DNA of 64,000 bases from an uncultured Actinomycetes bacterium (GTDB lineage Bacteria; Actinomycetota; UBA4738; HRBIN12): positions 690,692-754,691 of the forward strand of contig CAWHTI010000012.1 in assembly GCA_963832225.1 (NCBI GenBank). Direction: 5' to 3'. Both the position numbers and the translations under genes were made by a program. This document shows, one piece after another, positions 19,401-64,000 of the stretch. The notes beneath the pieces are model-generated. The model saw only the letters and a program-made list of their open reading frames with translations. It had not been told where the DNA came from and did no database searches. How positions within the stretch are numbered: position 1 is the stretch's first letter; each line of letters starts with the position of its first letter.

Positions 19401-19717
19401 TCGCGCAGCGGACCGTGGACGAGGACGTGCGCGTGCGGTGGTTCCGCGGCCCGATCGGACGCGAGCTGACGCGGCTCGTGGGACCGGTCGACCCGCTGCC
19501 CGCCGCCGACGGCGTCAAGAAGGCGAGCAGGACGGGGGCGCGGACGCGGCGCTGTTGAAGAGCCTGATACAGGGGAAGACGAACGGTGAGATCGCCGAGG
19601 AGCTCGGGATCGACGAACCGTCCGTCGCGACGACGACTCGCGGAGCTGTACACGCACATCGGCGCGTCGTCGCGCGCCGAGGCCACCGCGTTCGCGTTCC
19701 GGGAGCGGGTCCTGTGA
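16476..19717 (+). pseudogene. large ATP-binding LuxR-family regulator (ATPase-TPR-LuxR HTH), about 3 frameshifts (about 17880, 19540, 19630)
   Basis: GTG start with GAAGGA RBS; Walker A GEPGIGKTRLL, Walker B LIDDLQWSDDDS; long TPR region (ORF 17792..19558); LuxR HTH split over two further frames (LLKSLIQGKTNGEIAEELGIDEPSVA ... RLAELYTHIGASSRAEATAFAFRERVL stop at 19717). Confidence 0.75.
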
Positions 19718-19720
19718 GGC

Positions 19721-19756
19721 GCGGGTGGGAGGGGCGCCGCGGGTGGGAGGGGCGCC
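19721..19756. repeat. perfect 18-bp tandem duplication (gcgggtgggaggggcgcc x2) carrying a GGGAGG Shine-Dalgarno, immediately upstream of the ferredoxin-cyclase start codon
   Basis: Read directly: gcgggtgggaggggcgcc gcgggtgggaggggcgcc gaag ATG. Confidence 0.8.
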
Positions 19757-19760
19757 GAAG

Positions 19761-23485: not shown

Positions 23486-23567
23486 CCTAGTGTGGCCGAT
23501 CCGGCTCGAAGTTCGGTCCAGTAGGCTTGCCGTGAGGGCGGCGCATGATGGATCGAGGGCGGTGTGC

Positions 23568-24893
23568 ATGACGCTCCTGGACTCGACCCCCAGGACGTTC
23601 GGTGAGTACGTGGCGACGGGTGGGGGTCGCGGACTCGAGATCGCGCTGCGGGCCGCGCCCGACGCGGTGATCGATGAGATCGCTCGAAGCGGTCTCCGAG
23701 GGCGCGGCGGAGCCGGCTTCCCCACGGGTGAGAAGTGGCGCTCGATCCGAACGACCGGCACCGGTACGAGGTTCGCGGTCTGCAACGGCGCCGAAGGAGA
23801 ACCTGCCACCTACAAGGACCGGACGCTGCTGCGCACGAACCCCTATCAGGTCCTGGAGGGCCTCGCGATCGCCGGCTACGCGGTCGGTGCCGAGCGGTGC
23901 TACGTCGGCATCAAGGAGGCGTTCACCGAGGAGCTCGAAGTGACGCGACGCGCGCTCGAGGAGATGGATGCCGCCGACGCGCTCGGAGGGATCCCGTTCG
24001 AGGTGGTTCCGGGCCCGGACCTGTACCTGTTCGGTGAGGAGACGGGGCTGGAGGAGGTCATCGAGGAACGATTGCCCCTGCCGCGCCTGGCCCGACCGTT
24101 CATGCTCGGATTGTTCGCAACACCGCCGAACGACAATCCGACGCTCATCAACAACGTCGAGACCCTGGCGAACGTGCCGCACATCGTGGCGGACGGCCCC
24201 GATTGGCTTCGCGCGAGTGGCACGGACACCTCCCCCGGCCACATGGTGTTCACCGTCTGCGGCGACGTTCAACGCGAGGGCGTATTCGAGATGGCGCTCG
24301 GGACGACCATTCGCGACCTGCTCGAGGGCCAGGCGGGCGGGCCGGCGGATGGGAGATCGATCAAGGCCGTCTTCCCAGGCGCCTCGAACACGGTGCTCGT
24401 TCCCGAGCAGTTCGATACGCCGTTGGACTTCGACTCGATGCGGCAGGTCGGATCGGGGCTGGGAGCTGGCGGCTTCGCGGTCTTCGATGACACGGCCTGC
24501 CTGGTGCGTGCTGCATACCTGTATTCGCGGTTCCTTTCAGTGGAGTCCTGCGGCCAGTGCCCGGCGTGCAAGTTCGGCACGAGCGAGGTCACGCGAGTGC
24601 TGCGCACGATCGAGAGCGGGCAGGGATCGGACCAGGATCTCGAGTTCATCCTGGCACGGGCGAGAGCCTCGACCGACGGGCAGAAGTGTGCGCTGCCCAC
24701 CGGCGAGAGCCTGCTGATCCAGAGCTTGATTCAGGTGTTTCCAGAAGAGTTCGGCGCCCACCTCAACTCCTCGTGCACATCGTCCCGGGATCTCCCCTTC
24801 CACAAGATCGTCGGGTGGGACGCCGGCGGAGCGCGGTTCATATACGACTCCACGTATGCACGAAAGCAGCCGGACTGGACCTCTTCGGTCTGA
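23568..24893 (+). CDS. NuoF-like NADH-binding FMN / 4Fe-4S flavoprotein (NADH dehydrogenase 51-kDa subunit family), stand-alone
   Basis: FMN/NADH site GLRGRGGAGFPTGEKW, GAEGEPATYKDR; C-terminal 4Fe-4S motif ESCGQCPACKFGT; no other nuo genes nearby. Confidence 0.8.
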   Translation: MTLLDSTPRTFGEYVATGGGRGLEIALRAAPDAVIDEIARSGLRGRGGAGFPTGEKWRSIRTTGTGTRFAVCNGAEGEPATYKDRTLLRTNPYQVLEGLAIAGYAVGAERCYVGIKEAFTEELEVTRRALEEMDAADALGGIPFEVVPGPDLYLFGEETGLEEVIEERLPLPRLARPFMLGLFATPPNDNPTLINNVETLANVPHIVADGPDWLRASGTDTSPGHMVFTVCGDVQREGVFEMALGTTIRDLLEGQAGGPADGRSIKAVFPGASNTVLVPEQFDTPLDFDSMRQVGSGLGAGGFAVFDDTACLVRAAYLYSRFLSVESCGQCPACKFGTSEVTRVLRTIESGQGSDQDLEFILARARASTDGQKCALPTGESLLIQSLIQVFPEEFGAHLNSSCTSSRDLPFHKIVGWDAGGARFIYDSTYARKQPDWTSSV

Positions 24894-33534: not shown

Positions 33535-33798
33535 GGGAGGACCCCCTTTTCCCCGCCCGGTGTGATCGGCGGATCGTGAAGCTCCCGAGGTGCGGGCGGC
33601 CGAGGGGCGCTCCTGCTTGAGTTGCACGCTAGACCGGTCGGCGCATCGGGTCAACGGGACCTTCCGGGTCCCGGGAAGGTGATCCGGCGGCCGTGGCAAC
33701 GCACTGGTGATGTTCGACGGTGAGGAGGTACCGCGTGTCGTCGTCGCACGCCGCCTGAGGCTGGCCCACGGTATGGCGCCAGATCGGGCGGGCTCGCG

Positions 33799-34701
33799 TC
33801 AGGGCAGCACGAGGACGCGTTGGACCGGCGGGAGCCCGGAGGCGAGCTCGTTCCAGGAGGCGCCCTCGTCGGTCGAATCGTAGAGGTGCCCGTCGGAGGT
33901 GCCGAACGAGGCGAGGGTTCCGTCGGGCAGTGCGTCCAGACAGTAGGTGTCGATGTTGTCGTGGAACCACTCGGGGAGCCCGGCGCGGCAGCGCTCGAAC
34001 GTGCCCCCGGAGAGGTCGCCCCGATACACGGCGGCCCAGCCGCCGCGAGGTCCGTTCGAGGCGGACATGAGGACACTTCCACCGCAGACCGCGACGGCTC
34101 GCGAGTAGCGGGCCTCGAGGCCATCGGTCCGGTACGCCCAGGTGGCACCTCGATCGGTACTCACCGCGAGCCCGCCCGCACATGCCGCGAGCACCATCCC
34201 CGCTGCGGTCGTGACGTGATGGACGTCGGCGTCGACGTCGATCGTGGGTGTCCACGTCCCGCCCTCATCGTCGCTCCGAAGGATCCCGCCGACGTGGACG
34301 TTGACGTAGATCTCGTCTTCCCAGTTCGCCATGGAGCGGGTGTCGGGCGGTCCGCCCCAAGGGGTGTGCCAGATCTCGCGGCCGCTCGTGTGGTTGAACG
34401 CGTCGACCGGTTCGAGCGCCTCGCCGTCGAGCCGGAACAACCGCGCCTCCGACGAACCCACGAAGACGTCGGCACCGATACCGGTGACACAGGTGGCCCG
34501 AAGGGCGTCGAGATCCGTGACGTGGGACCAGTCGCCGCCGGTCGCGTGCCAGAGCTCGGACGCGTCGACGATCTCCCAGAGCTCCGTGCCTGCGCGTCCG
34601 AGCGCCGTCACGGACCGACCGACGTGGTCCTTCCCTCGCAGCTGGCCGTCATCGTCGAACGTGTGCATGCCGTTTCGTGTCGCCACGAGGATCGTTGGCA
34701 T
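33799..34701 (-). CDS. BNR/Asp-box-like beta-propeller hypothetical protein
   Basis: 300-aa intact ORF with Asp-box-like motifs (SDDEGGTW, STDRGATW, STDEGASW). Confidence 0.5.
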   Translation of the reverse strand: MPTILVATRNGMHTFDDDGQLRGKDHVGRSVTALGRAGTELWEIVDASELWHATGGDWSHVTDLDALRATCVTGIGADVFVGSSEARLFRLDGEALEPVDAFNHTSGREIWHTPWGGPPDTRSMANWEDEIYVNVHVGGILRSDDEGGTWTPTIDVDADVHHVTTAAGMVLAACAGGLAVSTDRGATWAYRTDGLEARYSRAVAVCGGSVLMSASNGPRGGWAAVYRGDLSGGTFERCRAGLPEWFHDNIDTYCLDALPDGTLASFGTSDGHLYDSTDEGASWNELASGLPPVQRVLVLP

Positions 34702-34843
34702 GGTCCCATGCTCTCACCTCCACGGAATCGCCCTCGAGCGGCCCAGGTGTTGTCTCAGCAGCGTCAGCCTGTCGGGTGGGAACGACAAGGCAATGAAGAG
34801 GCTCGACGCGCCGAGCGCGTGGCCGGCCTTTCGCTACACGTCC

Positions 34844-35609: not shown

Positions 35610-36851
35610 ATGTTTCGGATGCGACATGCGACTCGGATGACCGGGGAGAACACGTACCAACCAGGAGGTCTGGCGAGCACCGCTGTTGCCGCGACGACCG
35701 CGTTGCTGGCGGCGGGCCTGCTCCTGTGGCCGGCGGATGCAGCTCGAGCCGCGACACCCACGTGCTCCGGTCGGGCCGCGACCATCGTGGGCACCTCCGG
35801 AGACGACAACCCTCTGCCCGGGACGTCCGGGGACGACGTCATCGTCGGACGGGGAGGAGACGACGTGATCCGAGGAGGCGGTGGCAACGACCTCATCTGT
35901 GGCAAGGGCGGCGCGGACACGCTCAGCGGCGACGCTGGGGACGATGACCTCCTCGGGGGGGTCGGTGAGGACGTTGCGGACTATTCACAGTCGTATTTCC
36001 CATCGACGGCCGACGGGGTGAACGTCAACCTCGGCACGGGGCAGGCGACGGGCGAGGGAACCGACCAGCTGACCGGCATCGAGGGCGTGAACGGCTCCGA
36101 CTACGGCAGCGACATCCTCACCGCGAGCGACGCGGGCTCGACGTTGGACGGAGGCTTCGAGGCCGACACCCTCATCGGCGGCGCGTCGGCAGACGTCCTC
36201 CGTTCGGGTGCGACCGACGCCGAGCCCGATACGGTGGAGGGAAGGGGTGGCGACGACACGCTCGATCTCGGCGACCAGGATGTGCTCTCGTATGCCCACG
36301 CTCCGAGTGCCGTCCACGTCGATCTCGGTCTGTCGACGGTGAGCGGCGGCGACGGCGCCGACGTCCTCATGGGTTCGCCCCACTACGTCATCGGATCCAG
36401 GTACGGCGACGACATCTTCGGCGACGAGAACGGAAACATCCTCGTCGGCGGTCCCGGACGCGACACGATGGACGGCGAAGGCTATTACGACACGCTCTAC
36501 CCGGGCCGCGGCGACGATACGCTTGACGGTGGTCCTGGATCGGACACCGTGGTCTACGGCGACGGGACGGCGACGGCGGGCGTGACGGTCGATCTCAAGC
36601 TCGACTCAGTGCTCGGTGGTTCAGGCAACGACATCGTGAGCAGTATCGACGCCGTCGTCGGCACGGAGTTCGACGATGTCATCAAGGGCGGCGGCCATTC
36701 CAACTTCCTGTCCGGACTCGCGGGTGATGACAGGTTGAGGGGCCGGAGAGGGACTGACTTCCTGAACGGCGGTGAGGGGAACGACCGGGTGATCGGCGGA
36801 AACGGATTCGATAGTTGCGAGGGCGAGTTCACCCTCTCTTGCGAATCCTGA
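35610..36851 (+). CDS. secreted calcium-binding protein with hemolysin-type (RTX) GGxGxD repeats
   Basis: Signal peptide; more than 12 nonapeptide repeats (GTSGDDVIVG, GRGGDDVIRG, GGGNDLICG, GKGGADTLSG, GGPGSDTVVYG ...); 413 aa. Confidence 0.7.
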   Translation: MFRMRHATRMTGENTYQPGGLASTAVAATTALLAAGLLLWPADAARAATPTCSGRAATIVGTSGDDNPLPGTSGDDVIVGRGGDDVIRGGGGNDLICGKGGADTLSGDAGDDDLLGGVGEDVADYSQSYFPSTADGVNVNLGTGQATGEGTDQLTGIEGVNGSDYGSDILTASDAGSTLDGGFEADTLIGGASADVLRSGATDAEPDTVEGRGGDDTLDLGDQDVLSYAHAPSAVHVDLGLSTVSGGDGADVLMGSPHYVIGSRYGDDIFGDENGNILVGGPGRDTMDGEGYYDTLYPGRGDDTLDGGPGSDTVVYGDGTATAGVTVDLKLDSVLGGSGNDIVSSIDAVVGTEFDDVIKGGGHSNFLSGLAGDDRLRGRRGTDFLNGGEGNDRVIGGNGFDSCEGEFTLSCES

Positions 36852-36924
36852 GTCGCCTGCCGACGGTGACCCCGAATGTCAGACGATGGGCGGCCGCAGG
36901 GGTCGTTCGGATGGTGAGCGCTTC

Positions 36925-38292
36925 ATGATCGAGATGCCCGAGACGCGGTACGTGAAGACCGCAGACGGCACCCGGCTGGCCTACCAGGTCTTCGGCAGCG
37001 GCAAGCGAGACATCCTCTACCTGCCCGGACACATCGGGCATGTGGAAGTGCATTGGGAGGACCCGCTCTACGCAGCGTTCCTTCGGGGTCTCGGGTCGTT
37101 CGCGCGGGTCATCGCCGTCGACCGACGCGGTCAGGGATTGTCCGATCGGCTGTCTCCGGGGGACCTGCCGCCGCCCGAGGTCCTGGTCGACGACGTCGTT
37201 AGCGTGATGGCAGAGATCCGATCCCACGACACGGTGGTGCTGGGTCACGACGAGGGCGCACAGATCGGTGTCTTGCTCGCGGCGAGCCACCCGGACGCGG
37301 TGCGCGGCCTGATCCTCTACGGGAGCTCACCGAGCGGCGCGTGGTCGCCGGCGACGCCCTGGGGTGATACCGAGGAGGAATGGATGTCGTGGTTGGCGTG
37401 GGTCATCCCCAGGTGGGGCAGCATGGAGAGCGCCATCGTGGACGTCCAGGAGGCCGCCCCGGAGCGTGTCGGCGACGAGGCGTTCACCCGCTGGGTCGCG
37501 AAGCTGTACCGCTATGGCGTGAGTCCCAACGCCGCCTCCGCTCTGTATCAGCTGGCGCTCGGACTCGACGTCACTGATGTGCTGCCGGCCGTGAGGGTGC
37601 CGACGATGGTGGCGCACCGGACGGGCGACCGGATGACGCCGATGGAGGCCGGTCGATTCATGGCCGCACGGATCCCCGAGGCCAGGTTCGTCGAACTCCC
37701 CGGCGAGGATCATTTCCCGAACGGTCCCTCGTGGGAGGCACTCGTGGACACGATCCGCGGCTTCGTCGACGGATCGCAGGACCGGCCGACGGACAGCCGG
37801 CGGTTGGCCACCGTGCTGTTCACCGACGTCGTGGGATCGACTGCGCGCTCCGCCGAGCTCGGCGACGCCGCGTGGAAGGTGATGCTCGAGTCCCACCACT
37901 CAGCCGTGAGAAGGGAGCTCGAGCTCCACGGTGGCCACGAGCTCAGCACCGCGGGAGACGGCTTCTTCGCGACGTTCGGGGGACCTGCGGCGGCTGCGGA
38001 GTGCGCTCGCGCGATCGCCGACGCCGTGAGACGGATCGGGCTCGAGATCCGGGCGGGGGTCCACACCGGCGAGGTCGAGACGATCGACGGCGAGGTGGGT
38101 GGCATCGCCGTGACGATCGGCGCCCGGATCGGCGCGTTGGCCGGGCCGTCGGAGGTGCTCGTCTCCTCGACCGTGAAGGACCTGACCATGGGATCGAGAC
38201 TCACGTTCGAGGACGCGGGCCGGCATCAGTTGAAGGGGGTGCCAGGCCGCTGGCGTCTCTTCAAGGTTGCGGAGCCTTCTTTGGAGACGTGA
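36925..38292 (+). CDS. alpha/beta-hydrolase-fold / adenylate cyclase (CHD) fusion protein (second LipJ-like paralog)
   Basis: Hydrolase region (VDRRGQGLSD, LGHDEGAQIGV); CHD (VLFTDVVGSTARS, GDGFFATFGGP, IRAGVHTGEVE, GIAVTIGARIGALAGPSEVLVS). Confidence 0.8.
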   Translation: MIEMPETRYVKTADGTRLAYQVFGSGKRDILYLPGHIGHVEVHWEDPLYAAFLRGLGSFARVIAVDRRGQGLSDRLSPGDLPPPEVLVDDVVSVMAEIRSHDTVVLGHDEGAQIGVLLAASHPDAVRGLILYGSSPSGAWSPATPWGDTEEEWMSWLAWVIPRWGSMESAIVDVQEAAPERVGDEAFTRWVAKLYRYGVSPNAASALYQLALGLDVTDVLPAVRVPTMVAHRTGDRMTPMEAGRFMAARIPEARFVELPGEDHFPNGPSWEALVDTIRGFVDGSQDRPTDSRRLATVLFTDVVGSTARSAELGDAAWKVMLESHHSAVRRELELHGGHELSTAGDGFFATFGGPAAAAECARAIADAVRRIGLEIRAGVHTGEVETIDGEVGGIAVTIGARIGALAGPSEVLVSSTVKDLTMGSRLTFEDAGRHQLKGVPGRWRLFKVAEPSLET

Positions 38293-54314: not shown

Positions 54315-54364
54315 CGCGGATCAGTGGACAAACGATGTCGGCGGAACACACTGCTACCCGACGG

Positions 54365-54958
54365 CCGAGCTGAGGTGCGTTCATTCTGTTCTCGCTCCCC
54401 GGCACACCGGTGCTGTTCTACGGGGAGGAGATCGGCATGGGTGAGAATCTCGCGATCGACGGGCGGGCGAGCGTGCGCTCGCCGATGCAGTGGACCGACG
54501 AGAAGAACGGCGGATTCTCGGGTGCGGCCCCCTCGCGCCTCCGCCGCCCGGTGGTCGATGGCAGGTTCGGACCGCTCGCCGTGAACGTGGCGGCACAGCG
54601 ACGAGACCCGGATTCCCTGCTGAACTGGATGGAGCGTGTGATCCGCCGCCGGCGCGAGACACCGGAGCTCGGGTGGGGGTCCTGGCAGGTGCTCGAGACC
54701 GACTCACCGGCGGTTCTGGCGCACCGGTGTGACTGGGAAAACCGCCGGATCGTGGCGGTGCACAACCTCGGCGAGGAGCCGAGCGTCGTCCGCATCCAGC
54801 TCGGGGGTGACATCCCGAGCGGCGCCCGTCTGCACGATCTGCTGGCCGAGTCGGCCGAGGCGCACGAGATCGAGACCGACGCACTGGACCTCAAGCTCGA
54901 GGGATACGGGTTCCGCTGGCTCAGGCTGCAGTCACCCGGGCAGCACACGGCGCCGTGA
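54365..54958 (+). pseudogene. glycoside hydrolase family 13 (trehalose synthase / alpha-amylase-like) remnant, 5'-truncated
   Basis: Begins abruptly with GH13 conserved region VII (FSLPGTPVLFYGEEIGMGENL) and the C-terminal beta-sandwich domain only; about 195 aa of an expected ~600. Confidence 0.6.
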
Positions 54959-54990
54959 GCCACGGCGATCCGGCCACTGCCGCCGCTGGC

Positions 54991-55575
54991 TCATTCCGTG
55001 GGTCTCCCGTCGAATCCCCGCTGAGCGAGCCCGCGCAGCGCGCGATGTTGCAGGACTCGAACGGTGCCTTGTCGCTTGGCGAGGACCTCGGCGACCTCCG
55101 AGACCGTGAGGCCGGCAACCACCCGCAGAAGGAGAACGTCCGCCTGATCGGGAGAGAGGGCGGTGAGTCGAGAGATCGTTCGGTCCGCTTCGATCCGGTT
55201 CACTGCCTCTTCCTCCGCGTCTCCGGTGGCCCCGAGCGCGGCGAGGACATCGGGCGGAACCGACACGGCGCGTCGACGCTCGACCTTCCGACGCAGGTCC
55301 AGCATCCGTCGCCGGGCGATCGTGAAGATCCAGGCGTGGAAGTCGCCCTCGTCTCCGGAGAACCGACGCAGACCTTGGGCGACGCCGATCCAGACCTCCG
55401 ATGCCAGGTCGTCAGCGGAGGTGGGCTCGTGCAGGGCGAGGTACCGCAGGAGTCGCGGCTGGAGATCTCGATAGATGGCGGCGAGCGCCCACTCGGCTCC
55501 CGTTCGAGCCGCGTCGAGGACGGCGGGAAAATCGCTTCCGATGGTCATCGAGGGGACCGGAAGTGTAACGCTCAT
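54991..55575 (-). CDS. ECF-subfamily RNA polymerase sigma-70 factor
   Basis: Region 2 (LRYLALHEPTSADDLASEVWIGV, FHAWIFTIARRRMLDLRR) and region 4 HTH (LSPDQADVLLLRVVAGLTVSEVAEVLAKRQGTVRVLQHRALRGL); AGGGGG RBS before ATG 55575. Confidence 0.8.
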   Translation of the reverse strand: MSVTLPVPSMTIGSDFPAVLDAARTGAEWALAAIYRDLQPRLLRYLALHEPTSADDLASEVWIGVAQGLRRFSGDEGDFHAWIFTIARRRMLDLRRKVERRRAVSVPPDVLAALGATGDAEEEAVNRIEADRTISRLTALSPDQADVLLLRVVAGLTVSEVAEVLAKRQGTVRVLQHRALRGLAQRGFDGRPTE

Positions 55576-55629
55576 CCCCCTCGGCGCGATGTCTTGAATA
55601 GAGGCCAACCCAGGACAGGAGGTGGATGG

Positions 55630-56037
55630 ATGAAGAAGCTGTTGACAGGTGCTCTCCTCATCGTGCTCTCGGTCGGAACGCTCACACTCGGAACGACGAC
55701 GGTGGCCCTCTCGATCGGCTGCACGATCACGGGCAGCAGCGCATCCGAGAAGATCTGGGGCACTAGGCATGCCGACGTGATCTGCGCTCAGGCGGGCAAC
55801 GATCGCATCATCGCCAGGCGCGGTCGCGACGTGCTGCGCGGCGCCGGTGGCCACGACCGCCTGGTCGCCAGGAGAGGACACGATCGCCTCTTCGGCGGCG
55901 CTCGTGGCGATCGTCTCGTCTCGGCTGATGGTGTCTCCGGCAACGACAGGGTCTTCGGTCGGAGCGGGCACGATGTGTGCCGCATCGACGAAGGGGACTT
56001 CACGTCCGGGTGCGAGCGCGTCGTGATCGTCTCTTAG
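55630..56037 (+). CDS. small secreted protein with degenerate GGxGxD (RTX-like) repeats
   Basis: Signal peptide MKKLLTGALLIVLSVGTLTLG; repeats GNDRIIARRG, GGHDRLVARRG, GGARGDRLVS, GNDRVFGRSG; divergent from ECF sigma gene (55-bp spacer). Confidence 0.5.
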   Translation: MKKLLTGALLIVLSVGTLTLGTTTVALSIGCTITGSSASEKIWGTRHADVICAQAGNDRIIARRGRDVLRGAGGHDRLVARRGHDRLFGGARGDRLVSADGVSGNDRVFGRSGHDVCRIDEGDFTSGCERVVIVS

Positions 56038-56556
56038 GCGAAGCGGTTTCGCACCAGTGCAAACCCGAGGCTCGGGCGATCCCCCCACATGGTCCGAAAC
56101 TCGGTGTGAGGCGGCGACCTGGGGTCTGGCGGAGATCTCTCCAACGACCCCGGGTTGCTGGCTTCACCGCACGACTCAGGCTGGAGTGCAGAGGTTTGCG
56201 AACGATGACCGATGCACCGATCGCCACCATATCGTTCACCTGACTTCATCCTGCTGACGGCCCGATCCTCGGCTGGAGCGCTCCCGTGGACAGCGTGTTC
56301 TCCACAGGCCTGTCGGCGATTCGGAGTCGTTGCGACGCCCCCACCCGGGGCGGCTCCCACGCAAGCGTGGTCCTTCCTGGTGCGCGGGACGACCGCTCGA
56401 CCGCGACCCTTCGAACATGGATGGGCCGTTCGACGTAACGCACGTGCGTCACACGGAGCGTGCCCCGCGTAGGGCAGCCAACTAGCGTCTGACACTCCGC
56501 TACGGGAGGAACCGACGGAGGTGGCTGGATCGATGCGAGGAGCAGAGGGAGTAGCG

Positions 56557-56637
56557 ATGGCCCCGGAGTCGACGCCCGCGAACGTCGAGGCCGTCCTCGA
56601 GGACCTTCCACCGACTATGGCCTGGAGCAACTCATGA
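56557..56637 (+). other. candidate 26-codon upstream ORF (MAPESTPANVEAVLEDLPPTMAWSNS) overlapping the epimerase start by ATGA
   Basis: GAGGGAG RBS 5 nt upstream of ATG; stop TGA overlaps epimerase ATG; speculative. Confidence 0.2.
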
Positions 56638-57650
56638 CGAAGCGAGTATTGGTCACGGGCGCGGGCGGATTCATCGGCCATCACCTCGTCAAATACTTGG
56701 TGAATCGCGGTTACTGGGTACGCGGGGTCGACATCAAGTACCCCGAGTACGAGACTACCTTCGCCCAGGATTTCCAGCGGGCAGACCTGCGCGAGTTCGA
56801 CAACTGCGTCGCGGCAGCGGCCGGAATGAACGAGGTCTATCACCTCGCGGCGGACATGGGCGGCATCGGCTATATCACCGAGTCGCACGCCGTGGTCACG
56901 CGTAACAACATCTTGATCGACGCCAACGTGCTGGGAGCCGCGCGACGAGCCGAGGTCGAGCTGATGTTCTACTCGTCCTCGGCATGCATCTATCCGATGT
57001 ACAAGCAGTACGAGGCTGACGTCACACCGCTCAAGGAGGAGGACGCCTACCCGGCAGATGCCGAGAAGGGATACGGCTGGGAGAAGCTGTGGATGGAACA
57101 GCTGTGCCAGTACTTCCTCGAGGACTACGGCCTGCAGACGCGGGTCGCCAGATTCCACAACGTGTACGGACCGCTCGGCACGTACGATGGAGGCCGGGAG
57201 AAGGCGCCGGCCGCCATCAGCCGCAAGGTCGCACTCGCGAACGAGGGCGACGAGATCGAGGTGTGGGGCGACGGCGAGCAGACTCGATCGTTCATGTACG
57301 TGGACGACTGTGTGGACGGGATCTACCGCCTGACCCAATCTGATCACCATGAGCCGCTCAACCTCGGGTCGGATGAGCTCATCACCATCAATGGGTTGGT
57401 CGACCTGATCTGCGGCGTCGCGGGCAAGACCCTCGTGAAGAAGCACGACCTCTCCAAGCCCCAAGGCGTGCGAGGGCGGAACAGCGACAATACGAAACTC
57501 CGGGAGGTTCTGGGATGGGAGCCGCACTCCTCCTTGCGGGAGGGGCTCGCCGAGACGTACGACTGGATCGAGAAGCAGCTCGTGGGGTCCGGTCGTGGAT
57601 CTTCGGGGCGCACATCGAGCAGCGTCGGCGCAACGGGAGCCAGTCTGTGA
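56634..57650 (+). CDS. NAD-dependent epimerase/dehydratase (GDP-mannose 3,5-epimerase-like sugar-nucleotide epimerase)
   Basis: Rossmann GAGGFIGHHLV, catalytic YxxxK region (YGWEKLWMEQLC), conserved MYVDDCVDGI; GC and codon usage visibly lower than upstream genes. Confidence 0.8.
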   Translation: MTKRVLVTGAGGFIGHHLVKYLVNRGYWVRGVDIKYPEYETTFAQDFQRADLREFDNCVAAAAGMNEVYHLAADMGGIGYITESHAVVTRNNILIDANVLGAARRAEVELMFYSSSACIYPMYKQYEADVTPLKEEDAYPADAEKGYGWEKLWMEQLCQYFLEDYGLQTRVARFHNVYGPLGTYDGGREKAPAAISRKVALANEGDEIEVWGDGEQTRSFMYVDDCVDGIYRLTQSDHHEPLNLGSDELITINGLVDLICGVAGKTLVKKHDLSKPQGVRGRNSDNTKLREVLGWEPHSSLREGLAETYDWIEKQLVGSGRGSSGRTSSSVGATGASL

Positions 57651-57689
57651 TCTCAGCCGAGGGCATCTCTCCGATCACCGGGTCCATTC

Positions 57690-59441
57690 ATGCTCGGAGA
57701 CGTTGACGATGGTCGAACTCCCCCCTCCGCTCGAGTTCTCGTTGCTCTGCTGATCGCGAGCCTCTCTGTGCAGACGCTCGTGACAGCCGATGCGGTGCGC
57801 GCCGCGGTCACCATCCGAGTTCCTCAGGACTATGCGACCATCCAGGCGGCCGTGAACGCCGCATCGCCTGAAGACACGATCAAGGTCGCCCCGGGGACCT
57901 ACACCGAGAACGTGACGATCGATCGATCGATATCACTCGTGGCAGCGACGTACGATCAGAGCGATCCGCGGAACAACACGGCGATCTTGGACGGGGCCGG
58001 TGGGACCGTCGTCACGATCTCCAGGGGGATCGATCCGGGTCCCACGATCACAGGTTTCGTCATCCGCAACGGAAATAACGGGATCGCAGTCCAGAGTCCG
58101 GCGACCATCGAGCATTCCCATATCATCGATAATCAAGACGCTATCGACTACGTGAGAGGCGGAGGGGGGATCGCCGTCGGCAACGTCATGGAGCGATCCA
58201 TCGATGACAACATCGACAGCAACCATCCCACCGTCGATCTAACGATCGAGGACAACGAGATCCTGCAGGCAGGTGGCGATGGCATCGAAGTGCGACTGCA
58301 CGACGATGCGATCGCCGAGACGACGGTGATCACGATCCGTGGAAACGAGATCGTGGGAAATAGACAGGACGGCATCCAGATCATCGACTATTTCGATGAC
58401 ACGGACCGCCTGCTCGTCATCGAGCGGAACCTGATCAAGAGTGCGGGGTTGGCCGGCATCGGTCTGATGGACAACGGTGTAACCCGCGAGGACTTTCGCG
58501 CGGCTAGCATCCGTGAGCCCATCCGCGTGTTCCACAACACGTTCGTAGACAACGATCACGGAATCTCCGGCGGTGACAACCTGATCGCTCTCAACAACAT
58601 CTTCCAACACCACACCCTGGCGATGAAGAACGTCGACGCGAACTCCATCGCCAGCTACAACATCTTCTGGAACAATGCGGTCGACGCGCAGGGCAGCATC
58701 ATCGATGCGGCAACGACCCTCTCGGCCGATCCGCTCCTCGACGTAAGCAGCCAACTGCGGCCGGGCAGTCCGGCCATCGACGCTGGTACGGCGCACTTCG
58801 AGTGGCGCGGTGAGGTTGTCATGGACCAGCCCTCCGCGGCCTACTACGGCGCCGCGCCCGATCTCGGGTGGCTCGAGTACGTGCTAGGGCGCGTCACAGT
58901 CGCCGACTTCTCGTTCGAGCCAGAAGCCCTCCTGGTCAATCCTGGGAGCGTGGTGAAGTGGGTCTTCCGGGGACCCAGCTCGCACGCAGCGACCGACTCC
59001 ATCGGGCTCGGTCCCACGCGCGCCCCCCTATTCGACTCGGGACCAAAGGGCACCGGCGAGGTGTACAAGTTCAAGTTCGCGGCGGCCGGCCAGTACCCGT
59101 ATTCCTCGACGGCCGCGGCGCCCACGGCGATGAGCGGCACGATCACGGTTCCCGTCACCATCGCACCGATCAGGGGCTCCACCGCGACCCGATTCACGGT
59201 CACCTGGGCCTCGAAGAGCCTCTCGGGTTTCGGTTTCTCGGTCCAATCCCGGTTCAAGCCCGAGGGCTCCTCCTCGTTTACGACGTGGACGAGCTTCGGA
59301 CCCGTCCAGACCGCCCCGTCGGCGGTCTTCGTGCCGGATCGCGGTCCGGGCACGTATCAGTTCAGGTCACAACTTCGGAACGCAACGACCGGTGCGACGT
59401 CGTTGCGTTCCACGCCGACCTCCATCACCGTGACTTCCTGA
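57690..59441 (+). CDS. secreted right-handed parallel beta-helix (pectate-lyase/NosD-like) protein with C-terminal cupredoxin-like and Ig-like domains
   Basis: Signal peptide; beta-helix repeats (ITGFVIRNGNNGIAVQ, GGGIAVGNV, IRGNEIVGNRQDGIQI, NTFVDNDHGISGGDN, NIFWNNAVD); C-terminal domain resembling cupredoxin fold but without the Cys ligand. Confidence 0.6.
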   Translation: MLGDVDDGRTPPSARVLVALLIASLSVQTLVTADAVRAAVTIRVPQDYATIQAAVNAASPEDTIKVAPGTYTENVTIDRSISLVAATYDQSDPRNNTAILDGAGGTVVTISRGIDPGPTITGFVIRNGNNGIAVQSPATIEHSHIIDNQDAIDYVRGGGGIAVGNVMERSIDDNIDSNHPTVDLTIEDNEILQAGGDGIEVRLHDDAIAETTVITIRGNEIVGNRQDGIQIIDYFDDTDRLLVIERNLIKSAGLAGIGLMDNGVTREDFRAASIREPIRVFHNTFVDNDHGISGGDNLIALNNIFQHHTLAMKNVDANSIASYNIFWNNAVDAQGSIIDAATTLSADPLLDVSSQLRPGSPAIDAGTAHFEWRGEVVMDQPSAAYYGAAPDLGWLEYVLGRVTVADFSFEPEALLVNPGSVVKWVFRGPSSHAATDSIGLGPTRAPLFDSGPKGTGEVYKFKFAAAGQYPYSSTAAAPTAMSGTITVPVTIAPIRGSTATRFTVTWASKSLSGFGFSVQSRFKPEGSSSFTTWTSFGPVQTAPSAVFVPDRGPGTYQFRSQLRNATTGATSLRSTPTSITVTS

Positions 59442-59588
59442 GGACCGCGACGGCGATCCGGCACGCGGACCGGAAGGGACCTGCAGCTAGGCAAGTCGCT
59501 CGACGTCTTGGAGGTCGCTGCGGCGACGCAAGGCAACGCTTCGCCGTTGCTGCTTCCTCGCCGTCACGTGTGGTGCCGCAGGAGTCGA

Positions 59589-60470
59589 CTATCTCGCGTA
59601 CCCGAGCCGAGCGACGAGATCCGACGTTTCCCCGTCGAACGCTGCTTGGACCGCCGGTGTGAAGTGGTTGCGCCAATCCCCGGCAACGCCCTTCCGCAGC
59701 TTCGAACCCGTATCCTCTTGTCCCGGCTGGCGCCCGGAGAGGGCACGGAAGCTATACCGCGCCAGGAGGTCGGCGCGTTCGGCCGCCGAGAGCGAAACGC
59801 CGCAATGCTCGAGCAGCCGCTCCCACGATCGCTCGGCGTCCTCGCCGATCAGGTCTTCGTAGCGCACGAGGATGATGTGCGGCTCATCGACCCCGCTCCA
59901 GCTCCGGAGGGCGCCGAACAGGCCGTACGTGCCGAGTCGTTGGATGCTGTCGATCAGCCCCTGTTCCTTGTTCAGCGACGCGAGATGCTCGCGGGTCCGC
60001 TGCATGCCTCGGCTACTGTTCGTCGGGTGCGCGCTGACCGAGGAGAAGTACCAGCTGACGACGATATCGCGAGGGTCCCGGAGCACGAAGAACGCACGCC
60101 ACGGGTCCGCCTTGGGCAGCGCGGCGAAGCCTTCGTAGGGGATGTAGAGCGGTGACACGATCCTGCGGACAGGGAACGGCCGGTCGAACGAGATGTCACG
60201 GTACGGGCGGCTCCTGTCACCCGCGTCGAGCCGCGGACCATAGGCGTAGGTTCGAAGTCCTGTGACACGGTAGACCGTTGGATCAGCGAACACCTTGCGG
60301 ATCCACTGGCTGCCGGTCTTGTGGACGCAGCAGTGGTAGATGTTGCGGACCTCGCTGCGGTGTGCGACGTGCCGCAGACGCACACGGTTCTCCGCGAATG
60401 CCGCCTTCGCCCACGGAGGAACGACGTTGCGGAAGCGCTGATTCCGGAGTAGTCGCTCGTGAACGGACAC
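59589..60470 (-). CDS. sulfotransferase-family protein (PAPS-dependent)
   Basis: 5'-PSB loop CCVHKTGSQW and 3'-PB motif VLRDPRDIVVSWYF; GTG start 60470 chosen (AAAGG RBS); 294 aa. Confidence 0.7.
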   Translation of the reverse strand: MSVHERLLRNQRFRNVVPPWAKAAFAENRVRLRHVAHRSEVRNIYHCCVHKTGSQWIRKVFADPTVYRVTGLRTYAYGPRLDAGDRSRPYRDISFDRPFPVRRIVSPLYIPYEGFAALPKADPWRAFFVLRDPRDIVVSWYFSSVSAHPTNSSRGMQRTREHLASLNKEQGLIDSIQRLGTYGLFGALRSWSGVDEPHIILVRYEDLIGEDAERSWERLLEHCGVSLSAAERADLLARYSFRALSGRQPGQEDTGSKLRKGVAGDWRNHFTPAVQAAFDGETSDLVARLGYAR

Positions 60471-60490
60471 GTCGTCGACCTTTCGCGTAC

Positions 60491-62050
60491 CTACCTCAGA
60501 CGGATGACGCGCCGGGCTCGACTCAACAGCCACCTGCGCTGCACCTCGGACAACCCTCCGAAGACCGCGGCCGCCACCAAGACCACCCCCGAGAGAGCCG
60601 ACGCGACGACCAAACTCACCCACGTCCCGACCGTCACGACGGATCCCAGAGCGGCAGCCGCCCCGAAGAGCCCTGCCGTGACGAGTCCTGCTCGAAGCAT
60701 CGCCACGACCTGAGCAGAGGTCGGGATCGCCAGGATCCGACCGATCATCAGCGGATAGGTGACGCTCTGGACGGCTCGGCCCGCGATGAAGCCCGCGGCC
60801 ACGCCTCCGATGCCGAGGTCGAGCCGCGCGACGAGGAACCACGCGAAGCCGATGGACAGAGCGGCTGACAACAGCCCCAACAGCACCTTCCGACGGATGT
60901 TCAGCGTGAGGTCGATGATGTTCGCATCGACCCGGATGAACGTGAGCTGCAGGATCATCAGCACGATGAGCAGGGTCGGCCCCACGCCCGGGAAGTACCG
61001 CTGCCCGACCCACAACCGGAGGAAGGACTCCTCCCACAGCAGGACCCCTGCCCCGGCCACGGTCGCCATGAGCCAGGCCACCGCCATCGTCTCACTGCGT
61101 ACCCGTGCTGCCCGAACCATCTCTCCCGCGCCGATGAGGCCGCCGAGACCGGGCGCCATGCCGAAGATCACGCTGGTGACCGCTGAGGTGATCGTGAGCG
61201 GGATGAATCGAGTGAGCGAGTAGGTCGTGACCTGCGTCGCAGAGCCGGCGATGCCCAGCACCACGATATCGCCGCCCATCGTGATCCTCGTCACGAAGTT
61301 CCACAGCAGGAACCACCAGCTTAGCCCCAAGAACCGACGAACCGCAGATGCCTCCGGTCTGGCGACACCGAACCAGGGGATGTATCTGCGGGCCAGCCAG
61401 AGGAACAGCGCACCGCTCATCACCGTGACCACGACGGTGGCCACGGCGAGGCCGACCAACCCGGCCCCCGACACCGCCGCCACGACCATCAACCCACCGC
61501 CGACGAACTCGAAGGCGGCCGTGATGCCCATACGCTTGTAGCCGAGGTTCTCGCCTGCGAGCGCGGCCCACGGGATGTTCGTGAGACCCATGATCACCAC
61601 GCCCGCGACCAAGACCGCCGCGGTCAGTCGAACGACGGCGTAGTCGGCGGGTGGCACGTGCAGCCAGATCGGCGCGAACCATCCCACGACCGCGCCGATC
61701 GGAAGGAGGACCGGGATGAAGATCAGCCACACCACGATCGCGCTCGCGACGGCTTGTCGCTTGACCTGGAGGTCGTCGGAGGACTGGCGGTTCGCGATGA
61801 ACCACTTGAGGGCCTCGCTCGGCCGCCCGCCTGCGGGGTTGGTCTGACCGATCAGGCGGTAGACGACCTGCCAGTGTCCGAACGTGACGTCTCCCAGGTA
61901 CCGCAGCAAGAGCGGGTTGACGACGAAGCCGACGATGGCTCGGGCGCCCTGGTTCAGCGCAGTGGCGACCGAATTCAGCGACGCCTTCTTCGTCAAGCTG
62001 CCGTCGGAGAAGACCCTGGACCTGAAGCGAGTCACGAGATCGGCACCCAT
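60491..62050 (-). CDS. polysaccharide biosynthesis protein / Wzx-like MOP-family flippase
   Basis: About 14 TM helices, 519 aa, Wzx/MOP exporter architecture. Confidence 0.7.
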   Translation of the reverse strand: MGADLVTRFRSRVFSDGSLTKKASLNSVATALNQGARAIVGFVVNPLLLRYLGDVTFGHWQVVYRLIGQTNPAGGRPSEALKWFIANRQSSDDLQVKRQAVASAIVVWLIFIPVLLPIGAVVGWFAPIWLHVPPADYAVVRLTAAVLVAGVVIMGLTNIPWAALAGENLGYKRMGITAAFEFVGGGLMVVAAVSGAGLVGLAVATVVVTVMSGALFLWLARRYIPWFGVARPEASAVRRFLGLSWWFLLWNFVTRITMGGDIVVLGIAGSATQVTTYSLTRFIPLTITSAVTSVIFGMAPGLGGLIGAGEMVRAARVRSETMAVAWLMATVAGAGVLLWEESFLRLWVGQRYFPGVGPTLLIVLMILQLTFIRVDANIIDLTLNIRRKVLLGLLSAALSIGFAWFLVARLDLGIGGVAAGFIAGRAVQSVTYPLMIGRILAIPTSAQVVAMLRAGLVTAGLFGAAAALGSVVTVGTWVSLVVASALSGVVLVAAAVFGGLSEVQRRWLLSRARRVIRLR

Positions 62051-62057
62051 CGGGTCG

Positions 62058-63584
62058 TCAGATCCTCGACCACACGGCGGACTTGATCTCGGCGAGCACC
62101 TCGTCCTTCGGGCGACTCGCATCGATCACGACCGCGGGGAGCCGGTCCCAGTCCAGACGCCGGATTTCCTCGCACCGGCTGCGTACGACGTCCTCGTCGT
62201 CGATGCCGCGCTTGCGCTCGACCGCGAGATCGGGATCAACGTTCAGGACGACCAGGATGTCCGGATCGAGGATCCTCGCGTAGTAGTGCCGCTCGAGTCG
62301 AGCCAGGGACCTCACGAGCGGGCTCCCTCCGGGGGTGTCCAGCATCTTGCCCGCCAGTGGTCCGTCCATCAGCTCGATCTCGCGAAGCGGGAAGCGATCG
62401 CTGACGACGATCCCGCCGGCGGTGGCGAACCGACGGGCTCGTCGATACATCAAGTACCGGTCGCGCGCGACCGTGACCTGTTGGACCAACCTCGCGGATG
62501 CGCGACGGCTCATGGACCGTCCGTCCGAGGCAGCCAGCGAAGCGCCGGAGACGGACGGTTCCTTCATGAGTCCACGCACGCCTCGTCGCCAGACACGCCT
62601 CACGACCGACGAGGTCAATGAGCTCGGAGGCTGCCCGAGGTGCACGCGGGTCGTCGCGAAGTCCTTCGAGAGCCAGGCGTGGAGCTCGTTCACGGCCGTG
62701 GACTTTCCCGCTCCATCGCCTCCGACCACGGCGATCAGGACTCCACCGTCCAGCCGAGCCCGAGGCGACGGCCGGTGCAACGCGTGGCGGCGGACCATGA
62801 TGCGCACCCTCCGTGACAGCCTCAGGACGGCGTCGGTACCGTGCCGGCGCCGTGCGTAGGGCGCCAACGCACGTTCCAAGCGATGGGCGGTTCGGATCCG
62901 GACCCAGCCGGTGGCCCCGCCTTCGACGCACCGTCGGCACCGATCCCACAGGGCATCGCCGATGAACGGCAAGTGCTCGCGCACGACGGCCCGCACCTCC
63001 TCGAGGTCCGCACGCTGTGTAAGGAAGTCGAGCTCCCGGGTCTCGCTGGCCGCGAGCCGCCCCTTGTGCGACGCGATCGCGTCCCACGTCGAGTGTTTCA
63101 GCACCATCCGCACGACGAAGGCGGCGAGCTCGAACTCCGGAGCCGGGATCGGAAGCGGAAGCACCCCGTTGCGATCGACCGAGGCGAGGTAGGCGTCCTC
63201 GATCGGGAGCCGGTAGTTCTTCGTTGTGTCGTCGCCGAGCACGAGCTGGTAATGAGCGTGGATGTGCACGAGCTTCCCGGACGCCCCATCGAGCCCGTAC
63301 GAGTGGAACACACCCGGCACCCGTTTCATGGACGGCGACCGAGCATCCTTGAAGCCCAGGCGGCGGATCGCCACGACGAATCGCTGAGCGTCCTGGCCAC
63401 GTACCAGCAGGTCGAGGTCGCTGTCGCCTCGAGCCGAGCGCTCCAGCACGTCATTGCTCTTCCAGTGGCAGTACGCGATCTCCTCTGCGGCCAGGGCATC
63501 ACACAATCTGACGACGAGCGCCAGCGCCACGGCGTACCGATCGTCGAGATCGGTCTCGGCTGGCACGGTCGATGCGCGCGTCAA
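62058..63584 (-). CDS. fusion protein: Pol-beta-like minimal nucleotidyltransferase domain + thymidylate-kinase-like P-loop kinase domain
   Basis: N-term NTase signature ERSARGDSDLDLLV (hG[GS]...SDhDhhV); C-term Walker A VVGGDGAGKSTAV, DRF motif (IVVSDRFPLRE), TMK-like LID/PGG loop (LDTPGGSPLVRS); 508 aa intact. Confidence 0.55.
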   Translation of the reverse strand: MTRASTVPAETDLDDRYAVALALVVRLCDALAAEEIAYCHWKSNDVLERSARGDSDLDLLVRGQDAQRFVVAIRRLGFKDARSPSMKRVPGVFHSYGLDGASGKLVHIHAHYQLVLGDDTTKNYRLPIEDAYLASVDRNGVLPLPIPAPEFELAAFVVRMVLKHSTWDAIASHKGRLAASETRELDFLTQRADLEEVRAVVREHLPFIGDALWDRCRRCVEGGATGWVRIRTAHRLERALAPYARRRHGTDAVLRLSRRVRIMVRRHALHRPSPRARLDGGVLIAVVGGDGAGKSTAVNELHAWLSKDFATTRVHLGQPPSSLTSSVVRRVWRRGVRGLMKEPSVSGASLAASDGRSMSRRASARLVQQVTVARDRYLMYRRARRFATAGGIVVSDRFPLREIELMDGPLAGKMLDTPGGSPLVRSLARLERHYYARILDPDILVVLNVDPDLAVERKRGIDDEDVVRSRCEEIRRLDWDRLPAVVIDASRPKDEVLAEIKSAVWSRI

Positions 63585-63717
63585 CCCGCGACCCCGACGG
63601 GGGATCGGGGTAGAGACCCGGCTCGCGAAACGGCCATCACCCTCTCACGGTATGCAACCCCCGTCGGCCGCGCACCGGTGCCCGGGGGTATCTCTCGTAC
63701 GTCAACAGCAGTAGGGA

Positions 63718-64000
63718 TCATGGGCGGATCGCGTCGGTGCGACGATCAACCTCGATCGGAGCGCGGGGCGGTATCCACGCCCAGCCGGCGGGAAAGACGT
63801 CGTCGCGCGTGTACACGTTCAGGTCGAACGCTTCCAGGATCTCCATCGCACGCGCCTCTTCGTCCGCGTCGACCTTGCGCCGCCATTTGTTGACGAGATC
63901 TGGGCGCCTGTCGACGCCGGTCTCGAACAACAGGTGCTGCGTCTCCTCGCTCGACTTGATCCTGACGTTCACCGAGGGCACGGCGAGCGCGTCCCTCATA
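63718..64000 (-). CDS. hypothetical protein, 5'-partial (start beyond window end)
   Basis: Open minus-strand frame from window edge to stop at 63718; no recognisable motif. Confidence 0.3.
   Translation of the reverse strand, partial: MRDALAVPSVNVRIKSSEETQHLLFETGVDRRPDLVNKWRRKVDADEEARAMEILEAFDLNVYTRDDVFPAGWAWIPPRAPIEVDRRTDAIRP

Follow-up and report, generated by a model that had tools for sequence, protein, structure and literature searches.

Convergent epimerase/beta-helix genes and the 3' end of a predicted sulfated-polysaccharide cluster in an uncultured Actinomycetes bacterium

We analyzed a stretch of 64,000 nucleotides from an uncultured Actinomycetes bacterium (contig CAWHTI010000012.1, positions 690,692 to 754,691; hereafter the window), whose last genes, from position 56088 on, belong to families of glycan synthesis, sulfation, and export. 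The region is made up of two convergent transcription units. On the plus strand lies a pair of genes for a predicted GDP-mannose 3,5-epimerase (GME) and a right-handed beta-helix protein, and on the minus strand lies the 3' end of a gene cluster that encodes a 3'-phosphoadenosine-5'-phosphosulfate (PAPS)-type sulfotransferase (ST_A), a Wzx-like flippase candidate, a nucleotidyltransferase-kinase fusion (NTK), and the tail of a second sulfotransferase (ST_B). A first-pass annotation had described a single island beginning at 56088 behind a gene-free leader. All five genes that it named are present (with a weak Pfam match for the flippase), their families fit the locus for glycan synthesis, sulfation, and export that it proposed, and a leader does precede the epimerase gene; the layout, however, is that of two convergent units and not of one island, and ST_B had been missed.

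The final gene of the minus-strand cluster, at 59589-60470, encodes ST_A (293 aa), which matches PF00685 with an E value of 1.9e-17 and a score of 64 bits against a cut-off of 22. Its nearest solved structures are those of the cytosolic SULT2A1 family (E 1.5e-9), with which RDPRDIVVS and RKGVAGDWRNHFT align in phmmer, in an alignment that leaves out the region of the catalytic His. The motif HKTGSQW stands at the 5'-phosphosulfate-binding (5'-PSB) position, and all three PAPS-binding motifs are present; their retention is consistent with a predicted role of ST_A in sulfation. The ST_A orthologs hold the same terminal position in the related loci L002-L004, L006, L007, and L031-L033. ST_B is represented by its C-terminal 93 codons (63718-63999, minus strand), which run off the window end. 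The full gene, for a protein of 336 aa with a PRSGSTW motif, is found at 17071-18081 of the metagenome contig L001; its precomputed Pfam matches (PF00685/PF13469) are weak, and a comparison with the Protein Data Bank (PDB) gave no match. A 1-bp indel relative to L001 at 63746 alters the last ~15 residues of ST_B in the window, and another at 61353 leaves the flippase gene split in L001. These indels could be either long-read homopolymer errors or real pseudogenization. Hydropathy analysis revealed no clear membrane segment in the sulfotransferases or in NTK, and these proteins are predicted to be cytoplasmic.

The flippase candidate (MOP-type, 519 aa, 60491-62050, minus strand) matches PF01943 with an E value of 0.008, below the gathering score, and its orthologs likewise have weak PF13440/PF01943 matches. 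Comparison with relatives places its start at 62050, 7 nt past the NTK stop codon. The protein has 13 hydropathy peaks, several of them overlapping, which correspond to roughly at least 10 membrane segments. In our neighborhood comparison, the flippase-like protein was located within polysaccharide loci in every case, directly downstream of NTK in 17 of the 22 genome loci with downstream sequence. It may act as a flippase.

The cluster continues past the window. The exact epimerase protein of the window is also encoded on L001, a contig from the ENA (ERZ25039588 contig_63497) that is 99.8% identical to window positions 54386-64000, with 16 differences, three of which are 1-bp indels. L001 extends 3.3 kb further, through the full ST_B gene and genes for a 243-aa P-loop protein, a member of a 284-aa protein family, and a GT4 glycosyltransferase, which bears out the expectation of the first-pass annotation that the locus runs on beyond 64 kb into glycosyltransferases. 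Two further contigs, L034 and L036, reach on through a GT4 gene (GT4b), a third sulfotransferase gene (STc), and a second GT4 gene (GT4a); both of these, like L033, are frameshift-ridden long-read assemblies. The complete order begins with divergent ST3 and Wzz/PCP (polysaccharide copolymerase) genes, followed in the direction of transcription by Wzy, GT4a, STc, GT4b, the 284-aa protein, the P-loop protein, ST_B, NTK, the flippase, and ST_A. This 12-gene order is common to L002, L003, L004, L006, L007, and L032 and is degraded in L033, and the proteins of the window genes share 62-85% amino-acid identity with their counterparts in these relatives. The closest relatives are long contigs and MFD-bin metagenome-assembled genomes labeled "uncultured Actinomycetes bacterium" (MFD05567.bin.1.91, MFD09206.bin.2.30, and others). 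Precomputed Pfam calls for L002, L003, L004, and L032 assign the Wzy proteins to PF14296 (O-ag_pol_Wzy) and the Wzz proteins to PF02706 (Wzz) with AAA_31, and the calls for the relatives also include GT4 and Sulfotransfer_1/3, with four sulfotransferases per cluster. From gene order and similarity, we identify the minus-strand unit as the 3' end of a 12-gene Wzx/Wzy-type cluster that is conserved in uncultured soil Actinomycetes, the only organisms from which it is known. The window holds its last three genes and the tail of the fourth from last (3.3 of 12); Wzy and Wzz are presumably encoded in the window's own genome as well.

The least familiar member of the cluster is NTK, a protein of 508 aa (about 502-508) encoded at 62058-63584 on the minus strand. 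It combines an N-terminal Pol-beta-like nucleotidyltransferase domain of the PF14907 family with a C-terminal P-loop domain resembling thymidylate kinase (TMK), for which PF02223 scores an E value of 2.5e-7. Of 35 aligned sequences (the window protein and 34 homologs), 30 match PF14907 and every one matches PF02223, although the window NTK itself does not reach E 0.01 for PF14907. Residues K42-S43, D56-L-D58 (within DLDLL), and D99 are invariant in this set, as are G288-x-D-G-x-G-K294-x-T (GGDGAGKST) and D396-R397 (DRF, the DR[YF] motif of TMKs). An AlphaFold2 (AF2) model has a mean confidence score (pLDDT) of 86.5, and its C-terminal domain superposes on TMKs with template-modeling (TM) scores of 0.65-0.71. 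A true thymidylate kinase is ruled out by scores of 29-31 bits against an equivalog cut-off of 83 bits and is further opposed by the extra 270-aa N-terminal domain and the constant polysaccharide-locus setting. The family is large: a word-indexed search retrieved >1,700 homologs, most of them ~500 aa long with both domains, and at E <= 1e-30 there are 931 clusters (50% identity). In nearly every locus of sufficient length, NTK is accompanied by a P-loop protein from the family represented in the cluster. Neither the P-loop nor the 284-aa protein has a PDB or Pfam assignment, and a search of the literature on PF14907 found nothing relevant.

To place NTK in a wider context, we compared more distant loci. 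At ~50% identity within Actinomycetota, NTK and the flippase gene are adjacent, with a Wzz homolog divergent upstream and GT4 genes and an ST3-type sulfotransferase gene downstream; the Wzz homolog lies upstream of NTK in most distant loci, and an ST3-type sulfotransferase occurs in 17 genome loci. An NTK homolog with 45% identity is found in a cultured gammaproteobacterium, Methylobacter marinus A45 (L019; NZ_KB912877.1, 2709866-2731335), where the order is a priming transferase (Bac_transf), NTK, the P-loop protein, a pectate-lyase-like protein, two epimerases, a flippase, a Wzy-like protein, and GT4. No sulfotransferase gene lies within 10 kb in that locus. Because such loci have no sulfotransferase within 10 kb, NTK appears to be a component of polysaccharide assembly that is not specific to sulfation. 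Nor is NTK or the P-loop protein likely to be a disguised PAPS synthase (ATP sulfurylase plus APS kinase), an idea prompted by the combination of kinase and nucleotidyltransferase: neither protein matches APS_kinase or ATP-sulfurylase, and the idea, at best far-fetched, is further weakened by the occurrence of NTK without sulfotransferases in loci of Methylobacter, Gaiellaceae, and Gemmatimonadetes. M. marinus A45 offers a tractable organism in which to study NTK function. In L008-L029, a second, shorter NTK-like gene is situated ~10 kb downstream on the opposite strand (e.g., L011 20200-21471). This gene has matches to the nucleotidyltransferase part of NTK as well as to the small P-loop protein, so the two-domain theme is duplicated within one locus.

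As for what NTK does, our best guess, held with low confidence, is a sequential reaction in which a group is phosphorylated and a nucleotide-activated group is then transferred onto the repeat unit. The analogy is with the lasso peptide pseudomycoidin, whose nucleotidyltransferase we take to be a PF14907 member. In that system a kinase phosphorylates a hydroxyl and the nucleotidyltransferase adds a hexose to the phosphate (PMC8498205). The likeness lies in a kinase and a nucleotidyltransferase working in sequence and in the sulfotransferase genes of related clusters (PMC8498205). The pseudomycoidin enzymes differ in that the kinase is HPr-kinase-like instead of TMK-like, the two are separate proteins, and the substrate is a peptide, and the analogy extends to mechanism only.

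The first gene of the plus-strand pair, at 56634-57650, encodes a 338-aa protein that matches PF01370 (E 1e-46) and that we assign by sequence to GDP-mannose 3,5-epimerase. Similar to the solved plant GMEs, with which it can be aligned over its full length (residues 4-323) at 338-347 bits (8sg0, 346.6 bits, E 1.6e-102; Arabidopsis 2c59, 338.2 bits), the protein keeps the catalytic-site motifs: SSACIYP, YGWEK (YGxEK), and GGREKAPAA align with the plant enzymes, so that the Tyr/Lys of the short-chain dehydrogenase/reductase family and the acid/base Cys and Lys are conserved. The runner-up family, UDP-glucuronate decarboxylase, scores 109 bits, and homologs carry the JGI label GDP-D-mannose 3',5'-epimerase. 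GDP-fucose synthase and GalE are excluded, since their NCBIfam models give 135 bits against a cut-off of 500 and 74 bits against a cut-off of 262, respectively, compared with 346 bits for GME. The enzyme is predicted to make GDP-L-galactose and/or GDP-L-gulose from GDP-mannose. Unlike the GME of the ascorbate pathway, the window's gene adjoins a polysaccharide cluster. Identity among homologs falls from 87-95% within the same genus-level group to a broad plateau of ~70% in Actinomycetota. The first characterized bacterial enzyme of this kind (GM35E) was reported in PMC6678494.

The second gene of the pair, at 57690-59441, encodes a 583-aa right-handed beta-helix protein (PF13229, E 5e-10; NosD, E 3e-5). 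Its N terminus resembles a signal peptide, with residues 16-34 forming the sole hydrophobic segment, and is followed by a helix of ~390 aa, a cupredoxin-like domain, and a C-terminal Ig/Fn3-like domain. An AF2 model built with 37 homologs has a pLDDT of 80.9, rising above 90 across the helix. The best PDB folds are the mannuronan C5-epimerases AlgE6 and AlgE4, PL6 alginate lyases, chondroitinase B, GH87, and Vibrio RbmB (E 3e-5 to 4e-4), matches that give a generic but consistent signal of a polysaccharide-acting enzyme. The window protein shares with the A-modules of AlgE4/AlgE6 and with PL6, chondroitinase B, and RbmB a secreted right-handed parallel beta-helix of ~12 turns and, like Vibrio RbmB, is encoded beside an exopolysaccharide locus. 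It differs from these enzymes in that identity is only 11-15% and TM scores are 0.3-0.5, the match being one of fold, and in the additional cysteine-free cupredoxin-like and Fn3-like domains. The helix module is 50-65% identical across phyla, and the C termini are variable. On the strength of the modeled fold, we regard the protein as a candidate polysaccharide lyase or epimerase that would work outside the cell. Residues 402-487 resemble plastocyanin and halocyanin (E 2.6e-5 to TIGR03102) and are modeled at a pLDDT of 37-60. Because the whole protein has no cysteine, type-1 copper binding is excluded, and the cupredoxin-like domain was rejected as a copper site.

The relationship of this pair to the cluster varies among relatives. 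Both genes lie against ST_A in L001 and in L035, which is ~92% identical to the window at the nucleotide level. L031, also ~92% identical over the cluster, has only the beta-helix gene in this position, with a different small secreted protein encoded upstream, and L036, whose GME is 90% identical at the amino-acid level, has only the GME gene and a different upstream flank. The relatives with 62-85% amino-acid identity have neither gene at the cluster end; their right flanks encode succinate dehydrogenase, a multicopper oxidase, DUF5122, or a methyltransferase. Because each gene recurs at the same cluster end in different combinations, we interpret GME and the beta-helix gene as probable accessories of the cluster, with gains and losses at the genus level. 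It is also conceivable, though in our judgment rather unlikely, that the pair is unrelated to the cluster, a chance neighbor that serves another glycan or degrades environmental polysaccharide. The pair is transcribed convergently to the cluster from a leader of its own, L002-L007, L032, and L033 lack it at the cluster end, the beta-helix module is common in many phyla as a secreted protein standing alone, and GME is widespread in Actinomycetota. Set against this are the differing arrangements in which each gene abuts ST_A, the distant NTK locus of M. marinus, which likewise embeds a pectate-lyase-like protein and epimerases, and the frequency of dedicated glycanases in polysaccharide clusters, of which WpsE in wps-1 is an example (PMC13390465).

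Nucleotide composition had been the starting point for the island claim. The window has a G+C content of 69.0%, and its 1-kb bins span 60.7-74.7%. The region 56088-63999 is indeed the lowest-G+C 7.9-kb stretch of the window, at 65.2% compared with 69.5% for 1-56087, but the drop is smaller than the first-pass annotation had put it (from ~72% to ~60-63%), as the 4 kb preceding the region have a G+C content of 66.7-68.2%. The dip is centered on 56.6-59.4 kb (62.4%), which covers only the epimerase and beta-helix genes, and the bins at 56-59 kb measure 64.0, 63.3, and 60.7%. The bins at 59-64 kb (65.5-68.3%) fall inside the window's usual spread of 64-75%, and the 66.7% from 59.6 kb to the window end is similar to levels at 47-48 kb (64.3%) and 24-25 kb (65.6%).

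We called genes by frame-specific GC and compared those of the region with 37 background genes of the window. Although total GC is lower in the region genes (0.624-0.675 versus 0.695 +/- 0.024), GC at third codon positions (GC3) is 0.795-0.858 against a background of 0.843 +/- 0.042, and the mean log-probability of synonymous codons is -0.89 to -1.02 against -0.963 +/- 0.102, so that synonymous log-likelihood is <=1 SD from background. The GME gene, for instance, combines a GC of 62.4% with a GC3 of 83.5%. The deficit sits in codon positions 1 and 2 (GC1 and GC2) while GC3 is normal, and the lower G+C therefore reflects amino-acid composition and not foreign codon usage. TAC, AAT, AAC, ATC, and AAG are commoner in the region because its proteins contain more Tyr, Asn, Ile, and Lys, which accounts for the earlier impression of frequent TAC and AAT; the ratio of TAC to TAT is steady near 83-86%, and that of AAC to AAT drops only from 92% to 85%. 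TTG, also named in the first-pass annotation as a sign of changed usage, approximately doubles, from 6.0 to 13.2 per 1000 codons. A dip of 4-7 points that stems from amino-acid composition, with normal GC3, provides no evidence of horizontal transfer.

The locus looks resident in its lineage and not recently imported. A recently acquired lower-GC island, one unit from 56088 on that brought in a glycan-modification module, is in our view improbable. Besides being the lowest-GC 7.9 kb of the window, the region has features that would suit such an origin: the right flank of the cluster is different in every relative with 62-85% identity, ~90% relatives differ in whether they have the GME and beta-helix genes, there is a variable spot 2 kb upstream, and the GC content of the L032 cluster is 3-6 points below that of its right flank. 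L032 is nevertheless the exception, as cluster GC equals flank GC in five of the six relatives compared (L002, L004, L006, L007, and L033). A tRNA scan of the window found none, and hence none at the boundary, and no integrase or transposase domains were detected among the genes scanned at 19-64 kb, where border repeats were not specifically searched. The flank and the supposed island occur together in L035, which retains the order PD40-PD40-ECF-RTX-GME-beta-helix-ST_A, and together they comprise two convergent units, not one. For NTK and the epimerase, all named nearest homologs are from uncultured Actinomycetota/Actinomycetes. Homologs in the host lineage and conserved synteny are what the first-pass annotation had given as evidence against import, and they are largely what we observe, the latter through the gene order of L035. 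The variation observed is local and concerns a hotspot flanked by the second PD40 gene and the gene for the ECF sigma factor, along with the presence of GME and the beta-helix gene. We found no flanking genes shared by the window and the relatives' loci. An older relocation of the whole 12-gene block may have taken place, as the right flank differs among the relatives with 62-85% identity.

Overall, we think it likely that the region contains the end of a native 12-gene Wzx/Wzy cluster for a sulfated polymer, together with an accessory GME/beta-helix pair. The underlying Wzx/Wzy scheme is summarized in PMC8205485. The GT4 enzymes would assemble a lipid-carried repeat unit on the cytoplasmic side of the membrane, where up to four cytoplasmic PAPS-type sulfotransferases would O-sulfate the lipid-linked unit and NTK with the small P-loop protein would contribute another activated group, by adding or by supplying it. 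The Wzx-like protein would then flip the unit, and Wzy and PCP would polymerize the units into a sulfated extracellular or wall-associated polysaccharide. In strains that have it, GME would supply a GDP-L-galactose or GDP-L-gulose donor, and the secreted beta-helix enzyme would cut, trim, or epimerize the polymer outside the cell. From the gene content we infer that the product is sulfated, in what order the steps occur, and what NTK, the flippase, and the beta-helix protein do.

Several points weigh against this interpretation. The sulfated polymer and the enzyme activities are predicted from genes, in the cluster and its relatives alike, and with only 3.3 of the 12 genes in the window the others are taken from the near-identical contig and the relatives. 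The identity of the flippase depends on a weak Pfam match, hydropathy, and position. No priming phosphoglycosyl transferase of the WbaP/WecA type was found within the 12-gene block; a PF00953 gene lies ~7 kb past the cluster in L004, and the priming transferase could be encoded at another site in the genome. The annotated parts of the window revealed no genes for PAPS synthesis (cysC, cysDN). Four NTK loci outside the clade have no sulfotransferase within 10 kb, and the absence of the GME/beta-helix pair from the cluster end in relatives with 62-85% identity makes the link between pair and cluster one at the strain or genus level only.

Glycolipid-type sulfotransferases are exemplified by the mycobacterial Stf enzymes and rhizobial NodH. 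That the sulfotransferases modify a glycolipid, a peptide, or a small molecule exported by the flippase-like protein is, however, quite improbable: ST_A is closest in the PDB to cytosolic small-molecule SULTs, nucleotidyltransferase and sulfotransferase genes do occur in lasso-peptide clusters (PMC8498205), and a truncated trehalose-synthase-like alpha-amylase gene lies 4.6 kb away, but in all close relatives four sulfotransferases are interleaved with two GT4, Wzy, Wzz/PCP, and flippase genes in one co-directional block that has no precursor peptide, lasso cyclase, polyketide synthase, or lipid-synthesis genes, and the amylase remnant is strain-variable and absent in L035.

A Wzx/Wzy cluster for a sulfated polymer would place the locus beside two described systems. 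The synechan system xss of Synechocystis sp. PCC 6803 directs a Wzx/Wzy-dependent exopolysaccharide (EPS) whose sulfation was chemically shown (PMC8205485). Both loci set sulfotransferases of different subfamilies among glycosyltransferases, Wzx, Wzy, and PCP (PMC8205485), and would share the logic of a lipid-linked repeat unit that is sulfated and then flipped and polymerized. They differ in that xss has two sulfotransferases and eight glycosyltransferases and resides on a megaplasmid of a Gram-negative cyanobacterium with an OPX exporter, whereas the cluster described here has four sulfotransferases, two GT4 enzymes, the NTK fusion, and the P-loop protein and belongs to uncultured Actinomycetes; the likeness is one of gene content. 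The wps-1 locus of Actinoplanes missouriensis, which is predicted to make a sulfated EPS required for sporangium formation (PMC13390465, 2026), likewise has actinomycete Wzx, Wzy, and Wzz proteins, two sulfotransferase families, a kinase-like protein, and a glycan-cleaving enzyme, and sulfation is predicted in both. Its complement of two sulfotransferases, a methyltransferase, the protein-kinase-like WpsI, and a GH26 enzyme contrasts with the four sulfotransferases, NTK, beta-helix protein, and GME described here, and this similarity too is in gene content. We regard the cluster as the same kind of system as xss and wps-1. It differs from them in the number of its sulfotransferases (four), in having no more than two GT4 enzymes, and in carrying the NTK/P-loop module.

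The conservation of this 12-gene, four-sulfotransferase cluster in several uncultured soil Actinomycetes suggests that the capacity is established in a soil lineage, and the cluster is compact enough to be attractive for heterologous expression. Sulfated polysaccharides are seldom found in bacteria and are sought after by industry. Papers of 2021 and 2026 portray them as essentially cyanobacterial, with one untested actinomycete candidate (PMC8205485, PMC13390465). The NTK family, which is large, uncharacterized, and almost always encoded beside a flippase, looks like an unstudied step of polysaccharide assembly. A bolder proposal, which we put forward as speculative and unlikely to hold in full, is that NTK and its P-loop partner form an unrecognized, widespread Wzx/Wzy module that acts on the lipid-linked unit just before flipping, perhaps by phosphorylating a hydroxyl of a sugar and placing a nucleotide-activated group on the resulting phosphate, and that, together with four sulfotransferases and GME, would yield a densely anionic sulfated polysaccharide containing L-galactose or L-gulose. 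If so, the product would be one of the earliest examples, beyond cyanobacteria and marine Gram-negatives, of a sulfated polysaccharide with a defined gene cluster.

The epimerase gene is preceded by a non-coding leader on the plus strand with a GC content of 66.1%. A gene-free leader of 546 bp had been described; the leader exists and measures 596 bp (56038-56633). The difference involves a 365-aa open reading frame ending at 56088, which is spurious; it overlies the ECF sigma gene and overlaps the RTX gene. The leader core (about 56385-56560) is near-invariant relative to L035, whose coding DNA differs by 7-8%, and includes a perfect 12-bp palindrome, ACGCACGTGCGT, at 56438-56449. The core and palindrome may represent an operator or a 5'-UTR element and may be linked to the adjoining ECF sigma factor; that this factor controls the epimerase/beta-helix pair is a conjecture. 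An upstream open reading frame (uORF) of 26 codons at 56557-56637 has the ribosome-binding site GAGGGAG, and its terminal ATGA overlaps the epimerase start codon. Its frame and length are retained in L035, and because 10 of its 26 residues differ there, the peptide itself is probably not conserved. An Rfam scan of the window returned no family, and hence no riboswitch is assigned to the leader. Scans of 55.9-60.6 kb found no sigma-70-like promoter match and a single terminator-like site, which lies within the beta-helix gene and is below chance expectation. The convergent spacer between the beta-helix gene and the final gene of the cluster (59442-59588, 147 bp) has no terminator-like site.

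To the left of the pair, outside the cluster, 54991-55548 (minus strand) encodes an extracytoplasmic-function (ECF) sigma factor and 55630-56037 (plus strand) a small secreted RTX-repeat protein; both genes are syntenic with the epimerase gene in L001 and L035. The strain-variable spot (54322-54978) is bounded by the ECF sigma gene and by a PD40 gene that ends at 54314. In the window it spans 0.66 kb and holds the C-terminal 182 codons of an alpha-amylase/sucrose-hydrolase-like gene (54410-54958); L001 has the same amylase remnant and 5.8 kb more, including the 5' part of the gene, and L035 has nothing there. Part of the extra L001 DNA (2402-3357) copies window 33797-34751 at 94% identity, covering a BNR-repeat gene (33799-34713), which by sequence comparison appears to be a recent duplication or exchange between sites ~20 kb apart. 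Elsewhere, the window encodes several secreted RTX and PD40 beta-propeller proteins and three adenylate/guanylate-cyclase fusions (19590-20495, 22148-23809, and 36793-38292), two of which have alpha/beta-hydrolase domains and the third a ferredoxin domain.

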